35,967 nucleotides of DNA from Pseudonocardiaceae bacterium (GTDB lineage Bacteria; Actinomycetota; Actinomycetes; Mycobacteriales; Pseudonocardiaceae), in NCBI GenBank assembly GCA_035546415.1, contig DASZXM010000445.1, forward strand, positions 1 through 35,967, read 5' to 3'. This document shows positions 23,984 to 35,967 of the stretch, piece by piece. The notes below the pieces were generated by a model. That model worked only from the letters and a program-made list of their open reading frames with translations, did not search any database and was not told the origin of the DNA. A program made the position numbers and the translations under genes. Each line of letters opens with the position of its first letter. Position 1 is the first letter of the stretch.

Positions 23984-24101
23984 TCCGTCCGCGTCCGATC
24001 GTTCGGACACTCTGGCTTTTCGGATGCCGCCGGGTGACAATCGGCCGGCACGCCGGGATTACGCCGTTCGCACAGGAGCCGCACGCCACCGAGAGCAGCC
24101 C

Positions 24102-25961
24102 ATGACGCAGACACCGAAAGCTCTCACCGCCGCCGAGCTGCTCGACCAGCGGATCAGCGCGTTCGCCAGGTCGTGGGCCAGGGTGCTGGCCAGCACCAGC
24201 TTCGTTCCCGGAGGCAGGGCGAAGGCCCGCGCCGTGCTGGAGGACGCGCTGCGACGGTTGGTCGACGTGCTCGGCGCGCAGGCGTTCGACCCGCAGGTCG
24301 GCCGGGACATCGGCAGGGACCTGGTGGCCAACCACATCTCGACGCCACGCACGCTCGGCGACTCGATCAGTCTGCTGGGCGGCCGGTTGCTGGACGAGTT
24401 GGACATCCGTTCGGCCGCTACCCAGCCGCGGCTGGCGGCGTTGCTGGGCCAGTTGGCGACCGGGTTCACGGAGGCGCTGCGGGACGGCGCGCTCACGGCG
24501 GCGGAGGACATCAACAAGGCCGAGCGGGCCGCGTGGCGGGACCAGCAGCGGCGGATGTACCGGCGGTTGCAGCACGCCCTGCTGCACGACCAGTTGACGG
24601 ACCTGCCCAACCGGGCCCAGTTCACCGGCTGGCTGGAGGAGATCATCGCCAGGGCGGCGGTGGACGACCGGGTCGGGTTGTGCGTCATCAACCTGGACCG
24701 CTTCAAGACGATCACCGACAGCATCGGCATGGACAAGGCCGACCAGTTGTTGTTGGCGGTGGCGAACCGGTTGCGGCCGCTGGCCAACCGCTACGGCCAC
24801 TTCCTCGCGCACCTGGGTGGCGACACGTTCGCCATCGGTGTCGAAAGGACGTTGAGCAGCGACGACGTGGCGAAGGTCGCCGATCGTGCGCTGCGCACGT
24901 TGAGCGACCCGATCCGGTTGGACGGCATGCAGATCCCGGTCACGGCCAGCGCCGGAATCGTGGAACGGACCGTTGTCGGTGCCCAGGCCGTCGAGTTGAT
25001 CCGGGCGGCGGACATCTCGGTCGGCTGGGCGAAGGTGGACCAGGGTGCGCACCGGCGGGGCCGGTGGGCGGTGTTCGACTCGCTGCGCAACGCCGAGGAC
25101 GTGCGGAAGCACACGCTGACGGCGGCGATGCCGGCGGCGTTGGCGCGCAACGAGTTCGGTTTGGCCTACCAGCCGTTGACGCGGTTGGGCGACGGGGAGT
25201 TGATCGGTGTCGAGGCGTTGGCCCGGTGGCACCACCCGTCGCTGGGGCTCATCGGGCCCGGGCAGTTCATCCCGGCGGCGGAGGACACCGGCCTGATCGT
25301 GCCGTTGGGGATCGCGCTGCTGGAACAGGCGTGCCGGCAGGCGGTTCGGTGGCGGGACGGCTGCGGTGTGACGGTCCTGATGAGTGCGAACCTCGCCGTG
25401 GCGCAGATCCGGGAGCCCGGGCTGGTGCCGGCGATCGCGTCGGTGCTGCGGCGGACCGGTTGGGACCCCACGGATCTCCAGTTGGAGATCGTCGAGAGCG
25501 CGTTCATCGGGACCGACGACGAGGCCATGGAGACGTTGGACGGGCTGACCCGGTTGGGGATCCGGTTGGCCATCGACGATTTCGGGACCGGGTACTCGTC
25601 GTTGGCCTACCTGGCTGAGCTTCCCGTGCACAACGTGAAGTTGGCCGCCCGGTTCCTACGGGGGTTGGACGGTGGGAGCGCCAATCGGACGATTCTGCCC
25701 GCCCTGGTGGCCTTGAGTCACGACCTCGAGTTGAGCGTGACGGCTGAGGGGATCGAGAACCGGGAGCAGGCGGAGTACCTGCGGGAGATCGGGTGTGACC
25801 TGGGGCAGGGGTACTTCCTGGGGCGGCCGGTGCGGGCCGAGATGATCACCGAGCTGATGACTCGCCGTGGGTCGTCGGGGTCGGGCTCGGAGCCCGGGAT
25901 GCGGCCAGAGGTGGGGATGCGGCCCGCCGCCCCCGACGCGACGGGCCGCAAGATCTCCTGA
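24102..25961 (+). CDS. GGDEF (degenerate, GGDTF) - EAL domain protein with an unassigned ~170-aa N-terminal domain
   Basis: GGDTF at 24816-24830. EAL-domain residues look intact (GVEALARW, MSANL, LQLEIVES, DDFGTGYSSL, KLA, AEGIE, GQGY). Confidence 0.9.
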   Translation: MTQTPKALTAAELLDQRISAFARSWARVLASTSFVPGGRAKARAVLEDALRRLVDVLGAQAFDPQVGRDIGRDLVANHISTPRTLGDSISLLGGRLLDELDIRSAATQPRLAALLGQLATGFTEALRDGALTAAEDINKAERAAWRDQQRRMYRRLQHALLHDQLTDLPNRAQFTGWLEEIIARAAVDDRVGLCVINLDRFKTITDSIGMDKADQLLLAVANRLRPLANRYGHFLAHLGGDTFAIGVERTLSSDDVAKVADRALRTLSDPIRLDGMQIPVTASAGIVERTVVGAQAVELIRAADISVGWAKVDQGAHRRGRWAVFDSLRNAEDVRKHTLTAAMPAALARNEFGLAYQPLTRLGDGELIGVEALARWHHPSLGLIGPGQFIPAAEDTGLIVPLGIALLEQACRQAVRWRDGCGVTVLMSANLAVAQIREPGLVPAIASVLRRTGWDPTDLQLEIVESAFIGTDDEAMETLDGLTRLGIRLAIDDFGTGYSSLAYLAELPVHNVKLAARFLRGLDGGSANRTILPALVALSHDLELSVTAEGIENREQAEYLREIGCDLGQGYFLGRPVRAEMITELMTRRGSSGSGSEPGMRPEVGMRPAAPDATGRKIS

Positions 25962-28272: not shown

Positions 28273-28959
28273 GTGGCGAACGTGCTCGTGGTCGAAGATG
28301 AGCCTGCTGTCCGTACCGCGGTGATCCGGTACCTGACCGACGCATCGCATGCCGTGCGCAGCGTCGGCACCGCCCTGGAGGCACTCCGGGAGGTCGCCCA
28401 GAGGTGCCCTGACGTGGTCGTACTCGACCTCGGGCTGCCCGACCTGTCCGGCGCCGAGGCGCTGAAGATGATGCGCAGCGTGTGCGACGTCCCGGTGATC
28501 GTGGCGACCGCGCAGGACGAGGAGTCGACCATCGTGTCGCTGCTCAACAGCGGCGCGGACGACTACCTGATCAAACCGTTCTCCGGCGAGCACCTCAACG
28601 CACGTCTTACGGCTCTCTTACGGCGCACCCAGCGCGGCACCGAGCAGCACGTGCTGTCGGTCGGCGGGCTGCGGATGGACCTGCGCCGCAGGGAGGCCAC
28701 GCTGGACGGCCGGCCGCTGGACCTGGTGCGCCGCGAGTTCGACCTGCTCGCGTTCCTGGCCGCCAGGCCCGGGGAGGTCGTCAGCAGACGGGAACTGCTC
28801 GCCCAGGTGTGGCAGCAGCCCTACGGTGAGGACCAGACCATTGACGTGCACCTGTCCTGGTTGCGCCGCAAGCTCGGCGAGCGCGCCGCCGCACCGCGCT
28901 ACCTGCACACCGTCCGCGGTGTCGGGGTGAAACTGGTCGAACCACCGCGGTCGTCATGA
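28273..28959 (+). CDS. OmpR/PhoB-family response regulator
   Basis: Receiver domain (VLVVEDE, VVVLDLGLPDLSG, KPF) and a winged-helix output domain (REFDLLAFLA...VHLSWLRRKL...TVRGVGVKL). Confidence 0.9.
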   Translation: MANVLVVEDEPAVRTAVIRYLTDASHAVRSVGTALEALREVAQRCPDVVVLDLGLPDLSGAEALKMMRSVCDVPVIVATAQDEESTIVSLLNSGADDYLIKPFSGEHLNARLTALLRRTQRGTEQHVLSVGGLRMDLRRREATLDGRPLDLVRREFDLLAFLAARPGEVVSRRELLAQVWQQPYGEDQTIDVHLSWLRRKLGERAAAPRYLHTVRGVGVKLVEPPRSS

Positions 28960-28974
28960 GGCGGTCGTCATGAG
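28947..28974. repeat. Perfect 14-bp tandem duplication GCGGTCGTCATGAG x2 at the RR-stop/HK-start junction
   Basis: Read directly: 28947-28960 equals 28961-28974. Confidence 0.9.
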
Positions 28975-30361
28975 GTGGGCGCTGGTCCGCGTCGCCGTCG
29001 CGGTGACCGCGATGATCTCCCTGGCGTTCCTCATCCCGCTCGCCGTGACCGTGCGGGAGATCGCCCGCGACAAGGCGTTCTCCGACGCCGAACAGCAGGC
29101 CGCAGCCATGGCGCCGGTGCTGGCCGTGACCACCGACGCCGACGCCCTGCGACGCGCCCTGGCCAGCACCCAGGACGGCGCGGCCGGCGACATCGCCGTC
29201 CACCTGCCCTCCGGTGCCGTGATCGGGGCCAGCCACGCGTCCACCTCCGCGCTCGGCGAGGCCACCCGGGAGGCCAAGGCGGACACCGTGGACGCTCCCG
29301 GCGGCTACACCGTGCTGCAACCGGTGGTGCTCAGCCAGGGCGTCGCGCTCATCGAGGTGTACGTGCCCGACTCCGAACTCGACCAGGGCGTCGGGACGGC
29401 GTGGCTGGTGCTGTCCGGTGTCGCGCTGGTGCTGGTGCTCGGATCGACGCTGGTCGCCGACCGACTGGCCGCCAGGTTGGTGCGCGCCGCCAAACACCTG
29501 GCCGAGGTGGCGCGGTCGCTCGGGTCCGGTGACACGAGCGTCCGGGTCACCGCGCAGGGCCCGTGGGAGCTGCGCGAAGCCGGACTGGCGTTCAACATCA
29601 TGGCCGGCCGGATGGACCACATGCTCGCCGCGGAACGCGAACTCGCCGCCGACCTGTCACACCGCCTGCGTACCCCGCTGACGGCCCTGCGGCTCAACGC
29701 CGCCGCGCTGGGCAACGGCCACGAGGCCGAACAGACCCGGCAGGCCGTGCAGCGGCTGGAGCAGGAGGTCGACCAGGTCATCCGGGCCGCCCGCGGCCAG
29801 GGCCGGGCACCCGGGCCGGTGCGCTGCGACGCGACCCAGGTGCTCCAGGAACGGCTGGGATTCTGGTCGGCGCTGGCCGAGGACCAGGGCCGGGCGTGGC
29901 GGTTCGTCGGCGGCATGGCCGCAGCACCCGTGCCGGTCGCCGCGACCGACCTGGCCAACGTGATGGACGTGCTGCTGGGCAACGTGTTCCGGCACACCGA
30001 CGAGCGGATCGCGTTCTCCGTCTCGCTGACCGTCGAACAGCGCACGGTGTTCGTCCTCGTCGAGGACGCCGGGCCGGGCATCGCCGACCCGGAGGCCGCG
30101 CTGCGCCGCGGACACGGCGCGGGCGGCAGCGGGTCGACCGGGCTCGGCCTGGACATCGTCCGCCGCATCGCCGAGGGCGCCGGCGGCGGCGTCCACATCG
30201 GACGGTCCGCACTGGGCGGTGCCGCCGTGCACGTCTGGTTCCCGACCGACCGGATCGACGACCAGGGCTCCGGCCAGGCGGGTAGCATGGTCAGACGCCG
30301 GTCCGGCAGGCACCGGCAGTCGGTGGAGGCCATCACGGAGCGCATCCGCGCCGTCCGGTGA
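28970..30361 (+). CDS. Sensor histidine kinase (TM-HAMP-HisKA-HATPase)
   Basis: H-box ELAADLSHRLRTPLTAL, N-box LLGNVFRHT, G-boxes EDAGPGI and GSTGLGLDIV, plus two TM segments. Confidence 0.9.
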   Translation: MRWALVRVAVAVTAMISLAFLIPLAVTVREIARDKAFSDAEQQAAAMAPVLAVTTDADALRRALASTQDGAAGDIAVHLPSGAVIGASHASTSALGEATREAKADTVDAPGGYTVLQPVVLSQGVALIEVYVPDSELDQGVGTAWLVLSGVALVLVLGSTLVADRLAARLVRAAKHLAEVARSLGSGDTSVRVTAQGPWELREAGLAFNIMAGRMDHMLAAERELAADLSHRLRTPLTALRLNAAALGNGHEAEQTRQAVQRLEQEVDQVIRAARGQGRAPGPVRCDATQVLQERLGFWSALAEDQGRAWRFVGGMAAAPVPVAATDLANVMDVLLGNVFRHTDERIAFSVSLTVEQRTVFVLVEDAGPGIADPEAALRRGHGAGGSGSTGLGLDIVRRIAEGAGGGVHIGRSALGGAAVHVWFPTDRIDDQGSGQAGSMVRRRSGRHRQSVEAITERIRAVR

Positions 30362-30507
30362 GCGGGCCCACCGCCGTCCGGCGGCCGTCACCGTGATCAG
30401 CGCAACTCGTCGGCACGTCCCACCGCCGGGTTGTCAGGTGCTACGGATAATGTCAAGTACCGTGGTCGCCGGTGTCCCGCGCACCGAGCGCCTCCTGTAC
30501 ACGCGCC

Positions 30508-33500
30508 ATGACCTGGGAGAACGACCCTGTGACTGCTGAGACCCTGTACGGGGCCGACGACCTGACCCACCTGGAAGGTCTGGAAGCGGTCCGCAAGCGA
30601 CCCGGCATGTACATCGGGTCCACCGACAGCCGCGGGATCAACCACCTGCTCACCGAGATCGTCGACAACTCGACGGACGAGGGAATCGCAGGTCACGCGA
30701 CCCGGGTCGTCGTCACGATGCACGCCGACGGCTCCATCCAGGTCGACGACGACGGCCGCGGCATTCCGACCGGTGTGCACGCCAAGTCCGGTCTGTCCGG
30801 TGTCGAGCTGGTGCTGACCAAGCTGCACGCGGGCGGCAAGTTCGGCGGCTCCGGCTACAAGACCTCCGGTGGCCTGCACGGCGTCGGCGCGTCCGCCGTC
30901 AACGCCCTTGCCCTGCGCTTCGACATCACCGTGAAGCAGAACGGCAAGGTCCACCAGATGTCCTTCGCGCACGGCGTGCCCGGAGAGTTCGACGGTCCGG
31001 GCCCCAAGGCGAAGTTCACCCAGCGCTCCGGCCTGCGCGTCGTCGGCAAGATGAAGCGCGGCGAATCCAGCGGCACGTCGATCCGCTACTGGTACGACGC
31101 GCGCTACTTCGACCCGGGCGCCAAGCTCGACACCGACGCGGTGCTGGCCAAACTGCGGCACACGGCCTTCCTGGTCCCCGGCGTCACCTACGTGCTGCGC
31201 GACGCCACGGCCGGCAACATCGAGGAACAGACGTTCCACTACCCCAACGGCATCTCCGACATGGTGGACTTCCTCACCCCCGCTGGCGACCGCCCGGTGT
31301 CGGGAACGCTGCTGGTCAACGGAACCGGCACCTACCTGGAGAACGCGGCCGACGAGAACGGCGTCATGCGGTCCAAAGTGGAGCGCCACGCCGAGGTCGA
31401 GGTCGCGCTGCGCTGGAGCACCGGCTACGACCGCACCATCGAATGCTTCACCAACACCATCCGCAACGTGCACGGCGGCACCCACCGCAAGGGATTCGAA
31501 CGCGCCGCGCTGCGCGCGATCCAGGACGCGGTGTCCCGCAGCAGGGGCCTGCTCAAGCCGAAGGAGGACCCACCGGTCCTGGACGACGTCCTGGAAGGCA
31601 TGACGGCCGTCATCCACGTGCGCATCCCCGAACCGCAGTTCACGTCGCAGACCAAGGACGAGCTGTCCACGGCCGGCATCACCAAGGTCATCCAGGCTGT
31701 CGTCGAACGCCACATCAAGGCGTGGACCGAGGACCGCAAGACCAAGACCGAGGCCAAGACCGTGCTGCAGAAGGTGGTCGACGCGTCCCGCGTACGGCTC
31801 ACCCAGAAGCAGCAGAAGGACGCGGCCAGGCGGAAAACGGCGCTGGAAGGCGCCGCGATGCCGGCCAAACTCGTCGACTGCCGCACCACCGGCGTCTCCC
31901 GCAGTGAACTGTTCCTCGTGGAAGGCGACTCCGCATTGGGCTGCTTCACCGGTGACACGATGGTCGCGTTGGCATCCGGCACGGCCATGTCGTTCAAGGA
32001 TCTCGCCGACGACTGGCAGCGGGGCGTCACTCACTTCGGGTACACGACGAACAAGGCCGGCCGCGTGGTGTTGGCACCGCTGGTCGCGCCGCGGCTCACG
32101 AAAACCGGCGCCCCGCTGGTCCGGGTGACGCTGGACAACGGCCAATCCGTCCGCTGCACGCCGGACCACCTGTTCCGGCTGCGCGACGGCTCGTACCGCC
32201 GTGCCGATGCCCTCGAAGCAGGCGACTCGTTGATGCCGCTCTACCGGTCGGTATCCGCGAAGTCCCCGGGTGACAACTTGGATGGCTACGAGCGCGTCTG
32301 GATGAACGACCGGGACGAGTGGGTCTACACCCACTACCTGGCCGACGCCCACAACCTGCGACACGGCACGGACAGTGCCGCGAACGGCAACGTCCGACAC
32401 CACGTCGACGTGAACAAGCGCAACAACGACCCCCGCAACATCCGCCGGATGACGTGGGAGGACCACGCCGCCCTGCACGCGTCGATGATGGGCGACCAGG
32501 TACGCCAGGGTTACCGGGCCTGGATGGCCAACGGTGGCCTGGAGTTCAAGTCGGCCATGCTGTCCGGCCAGTGGCGCGACCCGGCGTTCCGTGAGGCCTG
32601 CCTGGCACGCCTGGCAGCACTCAACAGCGATCCGGCGTTCCGGGAGCGGATCGAACTGGGTTTCCAGGACTGGTACAACGGGTTCAGCGACAGCGAACGG
32701 CAGGCGTACGCCGAGCGGATGCGCGAGCGCCAGGCCACCTACTGGGCCCACCCGGAACATCGAGCCGCGGCGGCGGAACGCGTCAGGGCGTTTTTCACCG
32801 ACCCGAAGCGCCGAGCCGAGTGGCGTGCGCGGTCCTGCGAGCAGTGGCAGGACGCCGAGCTTCGAGCCTGGCGCTCCCAGCGCACCACCGAGCAGTTCGC
32901 CGACCCCGCCGAGCGCGAACGGCAACGCCGGGCAGTACTGGCCTGGCACGCGGAACATCCCGAGTTCGGGGAGCAGCACTCGGCACGGATGAAGCAGCGG
33001 ATGGCCGACCCGGCCACCGAACATCTCGCGCGCGTCCAAGCAGGTCGTGCGCACTACGTGGCGTCGGTCCCGCGCGCCGAGCGGGTCGCACAGCAGGCCG
33101 ACGGCCGCCGGATCGCTGCGCTGCGCCGCCTCGCCCCGTTCGCTTCGTTGCCGGACGCGGAGATGGCCAGCGCGTACGAGGCCGAGCGGCTCCGGGCGGC
33201 GCGCACCGGCCTGCGATTCGATCGGCTGCTGGCCTGCTACGACGGTGACCACGCACGGCTGCGCGAAGCGACCGCCCTCGTCAACCACCGCGTGGTCGCG
33301 GTCACGCCGCTGGCCGAGACGGCGGACGTCTACGACCTGACCGTCGACGGCTACCACAACTTCGCGCTGGAAGCCGGCGTCTTCGTCCACAACAGTGCGC
33401 GCATGGCGCGTGTCTCGGAATACCAGGCGTTGCTTCCGTTGCGCGGCAAGATTCTCAACGTGCAGAAGGCGTCCCTGGCCGACACGCTGCGCAACGTGGA

Positions 33501-34032
33501 GATCGCGTCCATCGTGCAGGTGCTGGGCGCCGGCACCGGGCGGACGTTCGAACTGTCCCAGATGCGCTACGGCCGGGTCATCCTGATGGCCGACGCGGAC
33601 GTCGACGGCTCGCACATCCGGACGCTGCTGATCACACTGTTCGCCAAGTACATGCGACCCGTCATCGAGGACGGTCGGCTGTACGCGGCCATGCCCCCGC
33701 TACACAAGATCGTCACCAAGGGCCGCAACTCGGAGACGATCTTCACCTTCACGCAGCGCGAGATGGAAACCACGGTCGCGCGCCTGGAGAAGGCCGGCAA
33801 ACAGGTCGTCACGCCCGTCCCCCGGTTCAAGGGCCTCGGCGAGATGGACGCGGACGAACTGTGGGAGACCACGATGAACCCGGCGACCAGGTCGGTGCGC
33901 CGCATCACCATGGACGACGTCGACGCCGCCGAGACGGCACTCGAACTGCTGATGGGTGAAAAGGTCGAACCGAGGCGGAACTGGCTCATCGAGTCGTCCG
34001 GCCGGGTCGACCAGGAAGCCATCGACATCTGA
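30508..34032 (+). CDS. Type IIA DNA topoisomerase subunit B (GyrB/ParE family, ParE-like motifs), interrupted by an intein
   Basis: GHKL ATPase (LEGLEAVRKRPGMYIGSTDSRG, EIVDNSTDE, DDGRGIP, KLHAGGKFGGSGYKTSGGLHGVGAS). Toprim ELFLVEGDSALG is followed by the intein, then SARMARVSEYQALLPLRGKILNV, MADADVDGSHI and PLHKI. An alternative GTG start lies at 30472. Confidence 0.9.
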   Translation: MTWENDPVTAETLYGADDLTHLEGLEAVRKRPGMYIGSTDSRGINHLLTEIVDNSTDEGIAGHATRVVVTMHADGSIQVDDDGRGIPTGVHAKSGLSGVELVLTKLHAGGKFGGSGYKTSGGLHGVGASAVNALALRFDITVKQNGKVHQMSFAHGVPGEFDGPGPKAKFTQRSGLRVVGKMKRGESSGTSIRYWYDARYFDPGAKLDTDAVLAKLRHTAFLVPGVTYVLRDATAGNIEEQTFHYPNGISDMVDFLTPAGDRPVSGTLLVNGTGTYLENAADENGVMRSKVERHAEVEVALRWSTGYDRTIECFTNTIRNVHGGTHRKGFERAALRAIQDAVSRSRGLLKPKEDPPVLDDVLEGMTAVIHVRIPEPQFTSQTKDELSTAGITKVIQAVVERHIKAWTEDRKTKTEAKTVLQKVVDASRVRLTQKQQKDAARRKTALEGAAMPAKLVDCRTTGVSRSELFLVEGDSALGCFTGDTMVALASGTAMSFKDLADDWQRGVTHFGYTTNKAGRVVLAPLVAPRLTKTGAPLVRVTLDNGQSVRCTPDHLFRLRDGSYRRADALEAGDSLMPLYRSVSAKSPGDNLDGYERVWMNDRDEWVYTHYLADAHNLRHGTDSAANGNVRHHVDVNKRNNDPRNIRRMTWEDHAALHASMMGDQVRQGYRAWMANGGLEFKSAMLSGQWRDPAFREACLARLAALNSDPAFRERIELGFQDWYNGFSDSERQAYAERMRERQATYWAHPEHRAAAAERVRAFFTDPKRRAEWRARSCEQWQDAELRAWRSQRTTEQFADPAERERQRRAVLAWHAEHPEFGEQHSARMKQRMADPATEHLARVQAGRAHYVASVPRAERVAQQADGRRIAALRRLAPFASLPDAEMASAYEAERLRAARTGLRFDRLLACYDGDHARLREATALVNHRVVAVTPLAETADVYDLTVDGYHNFALEAGVFVHNSARMARVSEYQALLPLRGKILNVQKASLADTLRNVEIASIVQVLGAGTGRTFELSQMRYGRVILMADADVDGSHIRTLLITLFAKYMRPVIEDGRLYAAMPPLHKIVTKGRNSETIFTFTQREMETTVARLEKAGKQVVTPVPRFKGLGEMDADELWETTMNPATRSVRRITMDDVDAAETALELLMGEKVEPRRNWLIESSGRVDQEAIDI
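31942..33393 (+). mobile_element. Intein (484 aa) with an HNH homing-endonuclease domain and a DP-x-x-R repeat module
   Basis: Block A CFTGDTMVAL, block B VRCTPDHLF (TxxH), blocks F/G VYDLTVDGYHNFALEAGVFVHN followed by +1 Ser. HNH motif VRHHVDVNKRNNDPRNIRRMTWEDHAALH at about 32392-32478. Confidence 0.85.
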
Positions 34033-34051: not shown

Positions 34052-35967
34052 ATGGCACGCCGCAAGGGCCCGACGACCAAGGTCGACCCGTCCGCGTTCG
34101 ACAGCGCGGGCGCCACGGTGTTGGAGAACCCGGTCCGCACGGAGATCGAGGACTCGTACCTGGAGTACGCGTACTCGGTCATCCATTCCCGCGCCCTGCC
34201 CGATGCCCGGGACGGCCTCAAGCCGGTGCACCGTCGGATTCTCTTTTCCATGCACGAGAACGGTTATCGCCCGAACAGCGCCTACGTGAAATCGTCGCGC
34301 GTGGTCGGTGACTGTTTCGTACGTGGCGCGTTGGTGTCGACTCAGGACGGGCTGCGGCCGATCGAGGATGTCGAGGTCGGCGACCTCGTGCTGGACGGTC
34401 ACGGCAACACCGTCCCGGTGACCGCCGTCTACGAGAATCCGGTCTCGGAACTGGTCCGGGTGACCTGGTCCAACGGGCACACCATGACGGTGACGCCGGG
34501 TCAGCGCTTCCGGACGGTGAACGACGACCTGACGATCGGCTGGACCGCCGCACGCGAACTCGCCGGCCGGCGCACGATCGGCAACGGCGAGAGCCACCAG
34601 CCGCGGCTGGACGCGCACCGCGACGACGTCTACCCGTATGTGCTCGGCCTGATCGTCGCCGAGGGCTTCCCGGTGGATCGCGCTCGCGCCGTCGACGGCC
34701 GTGTCCGGATCCACATGTGCGATGTCGACCCACTGGATGTCGCCCATGGCTGGGCGATCGCCAACGGTCTCAACGTCTCGCGGGGCAAGCGGGTTGCGAC
34801 GAACCCGGCGCACCGCGATCAGCACATCCTGACCTTCGCGCGCCACGACGGCCTGCTCGAAGCAGCGATGCCACTGAGTGCGGCCAAGAGCGTTCCGGCA
34901 AGTGTGCTCGGCGACCGATCGGCATGGCTGCCCTTCCTGGCCGGCTTCTTCGACGGCGACGGGTACGTCCGCAAGAAGAACCGAGAGATCGTCCTCGTCA
35001 GCACGAGTTCGACGCTGATCCGCCAGATCTACTCGATGCTGGCGGACATGGGCATCCACGGTCATCACTGGGTGCGCGGTGCCTTCGACCGGACCGCTGA
35101 GCTCTTCGGCCTGTCGTTGGCCGGCCGGGACGCCGCGACGCTGGGCACAGCACTGCTGCGCTGGTCGAAGATCGACTACAAGCGCGACGGCCTGGCCAGG
35201 CTGACCGGGATCGATTATCAGTACGGCGGCAAGCAGGGCAACGACCGTCTGCCGTGTGCTCCGGTGATGGCGGAGTTCTCGGATGCCCACATCGGTGGCG
35301 GCTGGTTCCGGGACACCGACGGCAACGCGTTCCGCGCTTCCCTGTCCGCGGTGACGGGTGCCAAGGTCCGGTACGGCAAGGACCGCAACGGCATCGCGTT
35401 GGCCGACCGGGTGTTCCCGCTGTCGCGGGCGCACGTCGACGGCTGGGTGGACAAGCTCCGTCGGATCGGATCGCCGCTGGCCGACCGCCTCGACGCGCTG
35501 ACCGGTCTGTCGTTCCTGCGGGTGACGTCGGTCGAGCCGGTCGAGTCGGACACGACGTACGACATCCAGGTCGGCAGCGACGAGCACGCCTTCGTGGTCG
35601 AGGGCTTCGTCGTGCACAACTGCATGGGCAAGTACCACCCGCATGGCGACACCGCGATCTACGACGCCATGGTGCGTCTGGCGCAGGACTTTTCCATGAA
35701 TGCGCCGCTCGTCGACGGGCACGGGAATTTCGGGTCACCCGACGACGGGCCCGCGGCCAGCCGCTACACCGAGGCCCGGATGTCCGATGCGGCGATGCTG
35801 CTGGTGGGTGAACTGAACGAGGACACCGTCGACTTCCGGGCCAACTATGACGGTTCGCTGCAGGAGCCGTCCGTGTTGCCCGCCGCGTTTCCGAATCTGT
35901 TGGTGAACGGGACGTCCGGCATTGCCGTCGGTATGGCCACCAACATGATTCCGCACAACATGGGTGA
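34052..35967 (+). CDS. Type IIA DNA topoisomerase subunit A (GyrA/ParC family), interrupted by an intein; 3' truncated by window edge
   Basis: Not in the ORF track. My own translation from the ATG at 34052 (GGGAG upstream) reads [30 protein letters not shown]...SSRVVGD, then the intein, then [26 protein letters not shown]...VDGHGNFGS...[10 protein letters not shown]...[23 protein letters not shown]. No stop occurs before the window end. Confidence 0.9.
34313..35620 (+). mobile_element. Intein (436 aa) with a LAGLIDADG homing-endonuclease domain
   Basis: Block [23 protein letters not shown] motifs [11 protein letters not shown] (about 34637-34669) and [14 protein letters not shown] (about 34930-34971). 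Blocks [24 protein letters not shown] followed by +1 Cys. Confidence 0.85.

Follow-up and report, generated by a model that had tools for sequence, protein, structure and literature searches.

An intein lineage with glutamine at the block-B histidine position in bacterial type IIA topoisomerase A subunits

The DNA analyzed here, positions 1 to 35,967 of contig DASZXM010000445.1 of a Pseudonocardiaceae bacterium (this whole stretch of 35,967 nucleotides is called the window), contains an intein in the gene of a type IIA topoisomerase A subunit. In this intein (34313-35620), a glutamine, Gln64, occupies position B:10, where one expects the His of the block-B TxxH motif. Comparison with related sequences makes it probable that the element is a working intein of class 1 type carrying a LAGLIDADG endonuclease, that it belongs to a widespread family in which Gln has replaced this His, and that the Gln takes part in activating the N-terminal splice junction. 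The host is a ParC-like protein, interrupted at what we take to be the equivalent of Asp72|Val73 of Escherichia coli GyrA, within the region that determines quinolone resistance (QRDR) and ten residues before Ser83. His B:10 is the textbook catalytic residue of the first splicing step and has been described as the most conserved residue of inteins, and reviews up to 2020 list just one active exception to its presence.

The insert is a genuine intein and not a chance match. The A-subunit open reading frame opens at ATG 34052 and reaches the window end unclosed. It is split in frame at SSRVVGD|C by 436 codons, of which the first encodes Cys1 and the last two His-Asn, and in a Pfam search this insert breaks the match to the host family PF00521 into two stretches. 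The insert itself matches LAGLIDADG_3 (PF14528, 37.4 bits for a cut-off of 22.5), Hom_end (PF05204, 21.6 bits for a cut-off of 21.1), and the NCBIfam model TIGR01443, intein_Cterm (24.8 bits for a cut-off of 15.6). The AlphaFold2 model of the intein has a predicted local distance difference test score (pLDDT) of 88.5 and a predicted template modeling score (pTM) of 0.90. Its top matches in the Protein Data Bank (PDB) by Foldseek are endonuclease-containing inteins, PI-PfuI (1dq3), the TliVMA intein (7qss), and PI-SceI (1ef0), which are built likewise, a LAGLIDADG endonuclease being nested in a HINT domain (E values from 5e-19 to 1e-14), although sequence identity to them is only 13-16%. The mini-intein gp41-1 was also matched.

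The insertion site differs from that of the mycobacterial GyrA inteins, as the first-pass annotation of this DNA had recognized. In the window RYTEAR is uninterrupted, with the active-site Tyr codon at 35765-35767 as claimed there, and the +1 nucleophile is indeed a Cys (codon 35621-35623). This Cys lies 48 extein residues ahead of the Tyr, and not the approximately 40 first estimated. The mycobacterial allele, for whose site in M. xenopi the label GyrA-a is in use, was rejected because RY|T is intact and the insertion is 48 residues upstream. The mycobacterial inteins (Mxe, Mle) resemble the one of the window in being class 1 elements that interrupt the catalytic N-terminal domain of a type IIA A subunit, and the C-terminal blocks are similar, phmmer pairing them with YSLRVDTADHAFITNGFVSHN of Mxe. 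They differ by their site at the active-site Tyr, by a +1 Thr instead of a Cys, by TANH in block B, and by a true GyrA host.

The residue at block B

The canonical intein of the partner B subunit, encoded just upstream, gave a control for the register of block B from within the window. BLASTP against it places TPGQRFR over TPDHLFR without a gap (the B-subunit stretch being APLVRVTLDNGQSVRCTPDHLFR), and phmmer against the solved gp41-1 intein pairs TPGQ with SEEH. The N-terminal domain of 106 residues was also searched against 1.84 billion representative proteins, and the best 150 were re-aligned. Among these, at least 119 of the 123 inteins at other sites have His in the column of Gln64; in two of the remaining four, a His stands next to this column, off by one, in a third the His follows an insertion, and the fourth has Glu. 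In the AlphaFold2 model, T-P-G-Q forms a four-residue turn between two strands, like the TxxH of canonical inteins. Three sequence alignments and the turn of the model thus agree that Gln64 occupies B:10. The replacement of His by Gln in T-P-G-Q, proposed in the first-pass annotation, is upheld; the motif had been located correctly but with coordinates one base off (34489-34503), since the codons GTG ACG CCG GGT CAG lie at 34490-34504.

An error of register would leave another His, that of SNGH or some other, at the catalytic position in three dimensions. His56 of SNGH, eight residues upstream of Gln64, is present in all of the 69 genome copies checked from the Micromonospora/Amycolatopsis clade (see following), which would fit such an error. 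However, it is replaced by Gln in Umezawaea, by Arg in P0005, and by Asp in P0013 (two of the database relatives), it varies across the wider set of inteins at this site, and among the representatives of that set no His of the N-terminal splicing domain reaches 80% conservation. Because this His is not conserved and all the alignments place Gln at B:10, the SNGH His, which the first-pass annotation had named as the residue that could overturn its reading, is ruled out for this position, and a misplaced register deserves almost no credence.

An intein at a different site, in P0148 (1170 residues), has an apparent Glu at B:10 (ATPNERLW) and may be another His-less intein.

Distribution and selection

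Gln at B:10 is the mark of an entire insertion-site family spread over several phyla and not a private defect of the window element. When the view is widened beyond the actinomycetes, 38 representatives (clusters at 50% identity) have their intein at KSxxxxGx|CF, around residues 70-145 of a protein resembling the A subunit, and Gln is found at B:10 in 37 of them (TPGQ, TDGQ, TPDQ, TKGQ, and similar), including an annotated GyrA from a metagenome-assembled genome of Acidobacteriota. The Gln is no rarity confined to the window element. The only member with His is P0036, a low-GC GyrA of 1167 residues with the GyrA-box QKKGGKG; it has TEDH in block B and, where the penultimate His would be, Ser (IVTSN|C), and the two differences may be reciprocal. 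Cys1 and Cys+1 do not vary among the family members. The residue at -1 is D, E, N, Q, S, T, or H. Thr B:7 and, in block A, C1, F2, G5, L7, V8, T10, G13, and L14 are each kept in at least 80% of the representatives, and the block F pattern Y-D-x-Q-V...H.F is kept throughout. No solved structure of any member of the site family was found by a PDB sequence search.

More than 100 intein-free alleles are contiguous at this site, where they read VVG(D/E)VMGK(Y)HPHGD. The position equivalent to +1 is Val in 97 of about 110 of them and Thr or Ala in a few. P0163, a sequence of 309 residues from a JGI metagenome, is intein-free and 90% identical to the window extein, and it has Cys where the others have Val; it is the predicted spliced sequence. 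The exact match to the predicted product indicates that the spliced sequence is viable, and P0163 may be the footprint of a precise intein loss.

Two further observations concern the database relatives. In the A subunits P0033, P0088, and P0104, there is an extra intein right after HPHGD (HPHGD|CLDGDTL), a third site that is nine residues downstream of the Gln-type intein. P0016, P0022, P0048, P0054, P0074, and P0083 are very large proteins with repeats of about 100 residues containing TLSNGETITIEAGE, which hit the strand region of the N-terminal intein domain many times; these repeat proteins were rejected as inteins, the hits being apparently due to chance or composition.

A scan of one genome per bacterial species gave an intein at the same site in 69 species-representative genomes, all from actinomycetes: approximately 40 Micromonospora, 19 Amycolatopsis, and also Kutzneria, Actinokineospora, Allokutzneria, Planosporangium, Plantactinospora, Catenuloplanes, and Actinocrispum. 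The allele is thus common in genomes, which is one half of what the first-pass annotation had thought could undo its interpretation; of the other half, a prior characterization, no trace was found in the literature (see following). All 69 genome copies have the open frame, Asp at -1, Cys1, TPGQRF, and HN|CMGKYHPH(G/S)D. The Gln is encoded by CAG in 53 copies, by CAA in 15, and in none by CAC or CAT, the His codons that are a single transversion away. The ratio of nonsynonymous to synonymous substitution rates (dN/dS), computed by the method of Nei and Gojobori on the alignment of 58 full-length copies (window and loci), is 0.17 in the N-terminal splicing region, 0.18 in the endonuclease region, and 0.15 in the C-terminal splicing region, compared with 0.22 and 0.13 in the flanking exteins. 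Across dozens of species, purifying selection thus acts on the Gln and on both junctions.

The length of the intein copies ranges from 440 down to 200 residues. The mini-inteins L066 (200 residues), L067 (255 residues), and L061-L063 (around 310 residues, up to 314) have lost or degraded LAGLIDADG motifs, and in them both junctions are retained along with blocks A, F, and G and a block B that has the Gln. This is the pattern that one would expect under selection for splicing, and it argues against a dead element. More widely, a regular expression for LAGLIDADG motif 1 matched 35 of 68 intein copies, the other 33 being unmatched by the regular expression only.

These data bear on the possibility that the intein is splicing-impaired or decaying and that the interrupted A-subunit gene is nonfunctional, as for Arth_1007 of Arthrobacter sp. 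FB24. The sole other bacterial intein reported without His B:10, Arth_1007, is a pseudogene (PMC3196547). Moreover, TIGR01445 is blind to the N-terminal domain of the A-subunit intein but finds the B-subunit intein, and three database relatives, P0004, P0005, and P0008, look frame-shifted. Yet these three are single metagenome or long-read contigs, consistent with assembly errors, and the frame is open in the window and in all the genome copies. The extein is highly conserved, the Gln codon varies only synonymously, dN/dS lies at about 0.15-0.18 for the intein and at 0.13-0.22 for the exteins, and the endonuclease-less mini-inteins retain the splicing blocks. On the open frames, the codon pattern, dN/dS, and the mini-inteins, decay was rejected as an explanation and is very improbable. 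Of the two outcomes that the first-pass annotation had left side by side, a mechanistic variant or an impaired element, the comparative evidence (Gln in 69 of 69 copies, synonymous codons, dN/dS of about 0.17, mini-inteins) strongly favors the variant. Arth_1007, a DnaB intein, shares with the window intein an actinobacterial host and the lack of His B:10. It differs in having Asn there, in being a relic of class 3 type from which Cys F:4 is likewise missing, and in being experimentally inactive and confined to a single genome as a pseudogene (PMC3196547), whereas the Gln-type family is widespread and under purifying selection.

In the same 58 copies, dS is about 1.0-1.15 in the intein, approximately twice the value of the flanking 80-110 extein codons (0.5-0.7). 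Codon-usage constraint in the host gene and co-conversion of the flanks during homing are two possible reasons for this gap.

Splicing class and proposed mechanism

Except for His B:10, the A-subunit intein has all the residues of class 1: Cys1, Thr B:7, Asp F:4, the block F His, the penultimate His, the terminal Asn, and Cys+1. Class 3 was rejected because the WCT signature is missing (B:12 is Phe, F:4 is Asp, and G:5 is Val) and Cys1 is present, and class 2, which has no position-1 nucleophile (e.g., Ala1), was rejected by Cys1. Splicing would then follow the standard four-step class 1 route, with an N-S acyl shift at Cys1, trans-thioesterification onto Cys+1, Asn cyclization, and an S-N shift giving the mature ligated extein. 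In the first step, the side-chain amide of the Gln would supply, at the N-terminal scissile peptide or at the tetrahedral intermediate, the hydrogen bond otherwise given by His B:10. It could act by ground-state destabilization, or by stabilizing an oxyanion or the leaving group in the manner of the Gln of the papain oxyanion hole. Acid/base proton transfers would be handed to Asp F:4, to Thr B:7, or to water or solvent. The endonuclease would be behind the spread of the element into empty alleles of the Val73 type.

Several points weigh against this reading. His B:10 is reported to be essential in all the inteins in which it was tested (PMC3196547), and the only active group without it is reported to rely on a dedicated compensating Lys (PMC4031507). 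No conserved compensating residue was found in the Gln-type family. At the position 22-23 residues beyond B:10, the 68 copies show R, H, Q, C, S, M, N, or Y; compensation by a bulky residue at -1 (Friedel et al.) is inapplicable, because the -1 residue is small or polar; and compensation by B:11 was rejected, as this position is variable. B:13 is mostly, but not always, basic in the site family, and it is uninformative because it is also basic in the sole member with His. Finally, purifying selection means that the sequence matters, and it is silent on the speed and the conditions of splicing.

Inteins lacking His B:10 have been reported only for Arth_1007, with its Asn, and for the CDC21-1 intein of Tko and its orthologs (PMC3196547). 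This statement on two groups is repeated in a 2014 JBC review (PMC4031507), a 2018 Chem Sci paper (PMC6333167), and a 2020 review. The Tko CDC21-1 case is similar to the present one in that a whole orthologous set at one site lacks the block-B His, with Cys1 and the standard C-terminal residues in both. Tko CDC21-1 has been shown to be functional, and the Gln-type family appears from its conservation to be maintained as functional. The hosts differ, an archaeal CDC21/MCM protein for the former and a bacterial type IIA topoisomerase for the latter. In Tko a conserved residue outside the motifs, Lys58, compensates for the missing His (PMC4031507), whereas in the Gln-type family the equivalent position varies and it is Gln that stands in for the His. 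On this variability, a Tko-like Lys some 23 residues beyond B:10 was rejected. In the corresponding region the window intein has Arg86 and Arg87, and one subclade of the wider family has an ordinary xGD. The -1 residue is a bulky Leu in Tko (PMC6333167) and Asp or another small polar residue in the Gln-type inteins.

On balance, we favor the view that the inteins at the Asp72|Val73 site of GyrA and ParC proteins form a class 1 lineage spanning several phyla, with Gln for His B:10 and with neither a Tko-type Lys nor a bulky -1 residue, which would be the third and by far the largest natural His-less group and would have its own mode of N-terminal activation. Such a lineage might have an unusual pH or redox dependence. 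A different role for the Gln is conceivable in an active intein, where it would be a tuning residue that slows the first step or makes it conditional, so that the intein would act as a posttranslational throttle or sensor on topoisomerase IV, for example through a Cys1-Cys+1 disulfide redox switch or a response to DNA or substrate. Some inteins, e.g., Pab PolII, still splice after losing His B:10, though more slowly (PMC6333167), and in phage inteins splicing is tuned by noncanonical catalytic residues (PMC5050341). The invariance of Cys1 and Cys+1 across the site family would fit such a role, as would the presence of an intein in the partner B subunit and a site in the functional core that adjoins the DNA-binding helix of the QRDR. 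On the other hand, no sequence feature specifically indicates regulation, and the same Gln is found in very different hosts and phyla, in GyrA and ParC-like proteins alike, as one would sooner expect of a trait of the intein lineage than of a regulatory adaptation to one host. We thus regard a regulatory role as rather unlikely and retain a class 1 route in which the Gln replaces the His.

Full-text literature searches, in which the supplementary tables accompanying Novikova et al. (2016) were not covered, turned up no paper dealing with an intein at this site, with a ParC intein, or with Gln at B:10. Because that work tallied 50 GyrA inteins over four phyla and GyrA-a is in use as a label, the Asp72|Val73-type site may already be catalogued somewhere. 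The significance of the family would hinge on splicing being real. If so, a large and maintained set of Gln-type inteins would be a natural experiment on the role of the His, separating hydrogen bonding or strain from acid/base chemistry, and the 200-residue mini-intein L066 could be a scaffold for engineering if the Gln alters pH dependence or cuts premature N-terminal cleavage.

Host gene, neighborhood, and partner intein

The host is a ParC-like (topoisomerase IV-type) second type IIA A subunit of actinomycetes, and not the GyrA assumed in the first-pass annotation, because its neighbors are not those of oriC, the GyrA cut-offs are failed, and there is no GyrA-box. The L004 ortholog (Kutzneria), full length and spliced in silico, passes only the hidden Markov model NF004044, "DNA topoisomerase (ATP-hydrolyzing)" (851 bits for a cut-off of 654), which is also the best match of the A-subunit fragment of the window. 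It scores below both GyrA equivalogs, with 747 bits against 902 for NF004043 and 720 against 877 for TIGR01063. The GyrA-box (QRRGGKG) is absent from all eight orthologs examined, the window itself ending before the C-terminal domain. None of dnaA, dnaN, and recF is among the upstream genes in the window, and the pair is not at oriC. A canonical GyrA host was thus rejected by gene context, model scores, and the missing GyrA-box, and yet such proteins are routinely labeled "DNA gyrase subunit A". Topoisomerase IV is reported to be required to partition circular chromosomes in Streptomyces (PMC3905888), and such a need would give a reason for selection on splicing.

The window has about 70% G+C, and its features are listed in Table 1. 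Only 19 bases separate the B-subunit open reading frame from the A-subunit ATG, and the B subunit is directly upstream of the A subunit in 67 of the 67 loci where both genes were parsed.

Table 1. Coordinates in the window of the A-subunit intein, its exteins and motifs, the partner B subunit, and upstream genes
Feature	Coordinates	Strand	Description
GGDEF-EAL protein	24024-25961		Upstream of the topoisomerase pair
OmpR-type response regulator	28273-28959		Upstream of the topoisomerase pair
HAMP/HisKA histidine kinase	28970-30361		Upstream of the topoisomerase pair
Partner B-subunit gene	30472-34032	+	Immediately upstream of the A subunit
B-subunit intein	31942-33393	+	484 residues, GDSALG|CFTGDTMV...VFVHN|SARMA; canonical TPDH; +1 Ser
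N-extein of the A subunit	34052-34312	+	87 residues, MARRKGPTT...KSSRVVGD; -1 residue Asp; from translation; first PF00521 stretch
A-subunit intein	34313-35620	+	436 residues; predicted class 1-type HINT splicing domain with nested LAGLIDADG homing endonuclease
Block A	34313-34351	+	Cys1 nucleophile, codon TGT 34313-34315
Block B	34475-34516	+	Thr B:7 (Thr61), codon 34493-34495; Gln64 at B:10, codon CAG 34502-34504, where His is expected
LAGLIDADG motif 1	34637-34669	+	Acidic Glu present
LAGLIDADG motif 2	34934-34969	+	Acidic Asp; PF14528 at precursor residues 295-338
Block F	35552-35599	+	Asp F:4, codon 35561-35563; block F His, codon 35585-35587
Block G	35600-35620	+	EGFVVHN; penultimate His and terminal Asn at 35615-35620; TIGR01443
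C-extein of the A subunit	35621-35967	+	Leaves the window; +1 Cys, codon 35621-35623; intact RYTEAR

The intein of the B subunit presumably resembles the Ssp GyrB intein allele. A Pfam search of it returned no endonuclease domain. By eye, it has an HNH-like stretch, VRHHVDVNKRNNDPRNIRRMTWEDHAALH, followed by a long helical region rich in Arg, Glu, and Ala. TIGR01445 (intein_Nterm) gives 36.3 bits on this intein and no detection on the Gln-type intein of the A subunit (34313-34630). Because this model fails on their N-terminal region, automated annotation may miss or mis-delimit the members of the Gln-type family.

Four orthologous A subunits of about 1690 residues, L001 (Kutzneria viridogrisea), L009, L023, and L032, have room for a second intein. 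In L001, it is at RY|TEAR (CVVGDTRI...FVNHN|T) and has the block-B His (GSENH), so that only the upstream intein has Gln; for the other three, we infer a second intein from length alone. Farther upstream in the window, beyond the GGDEF-EAL and two-component genes, are a SAM methyltransferase and components of an ABC transporter.

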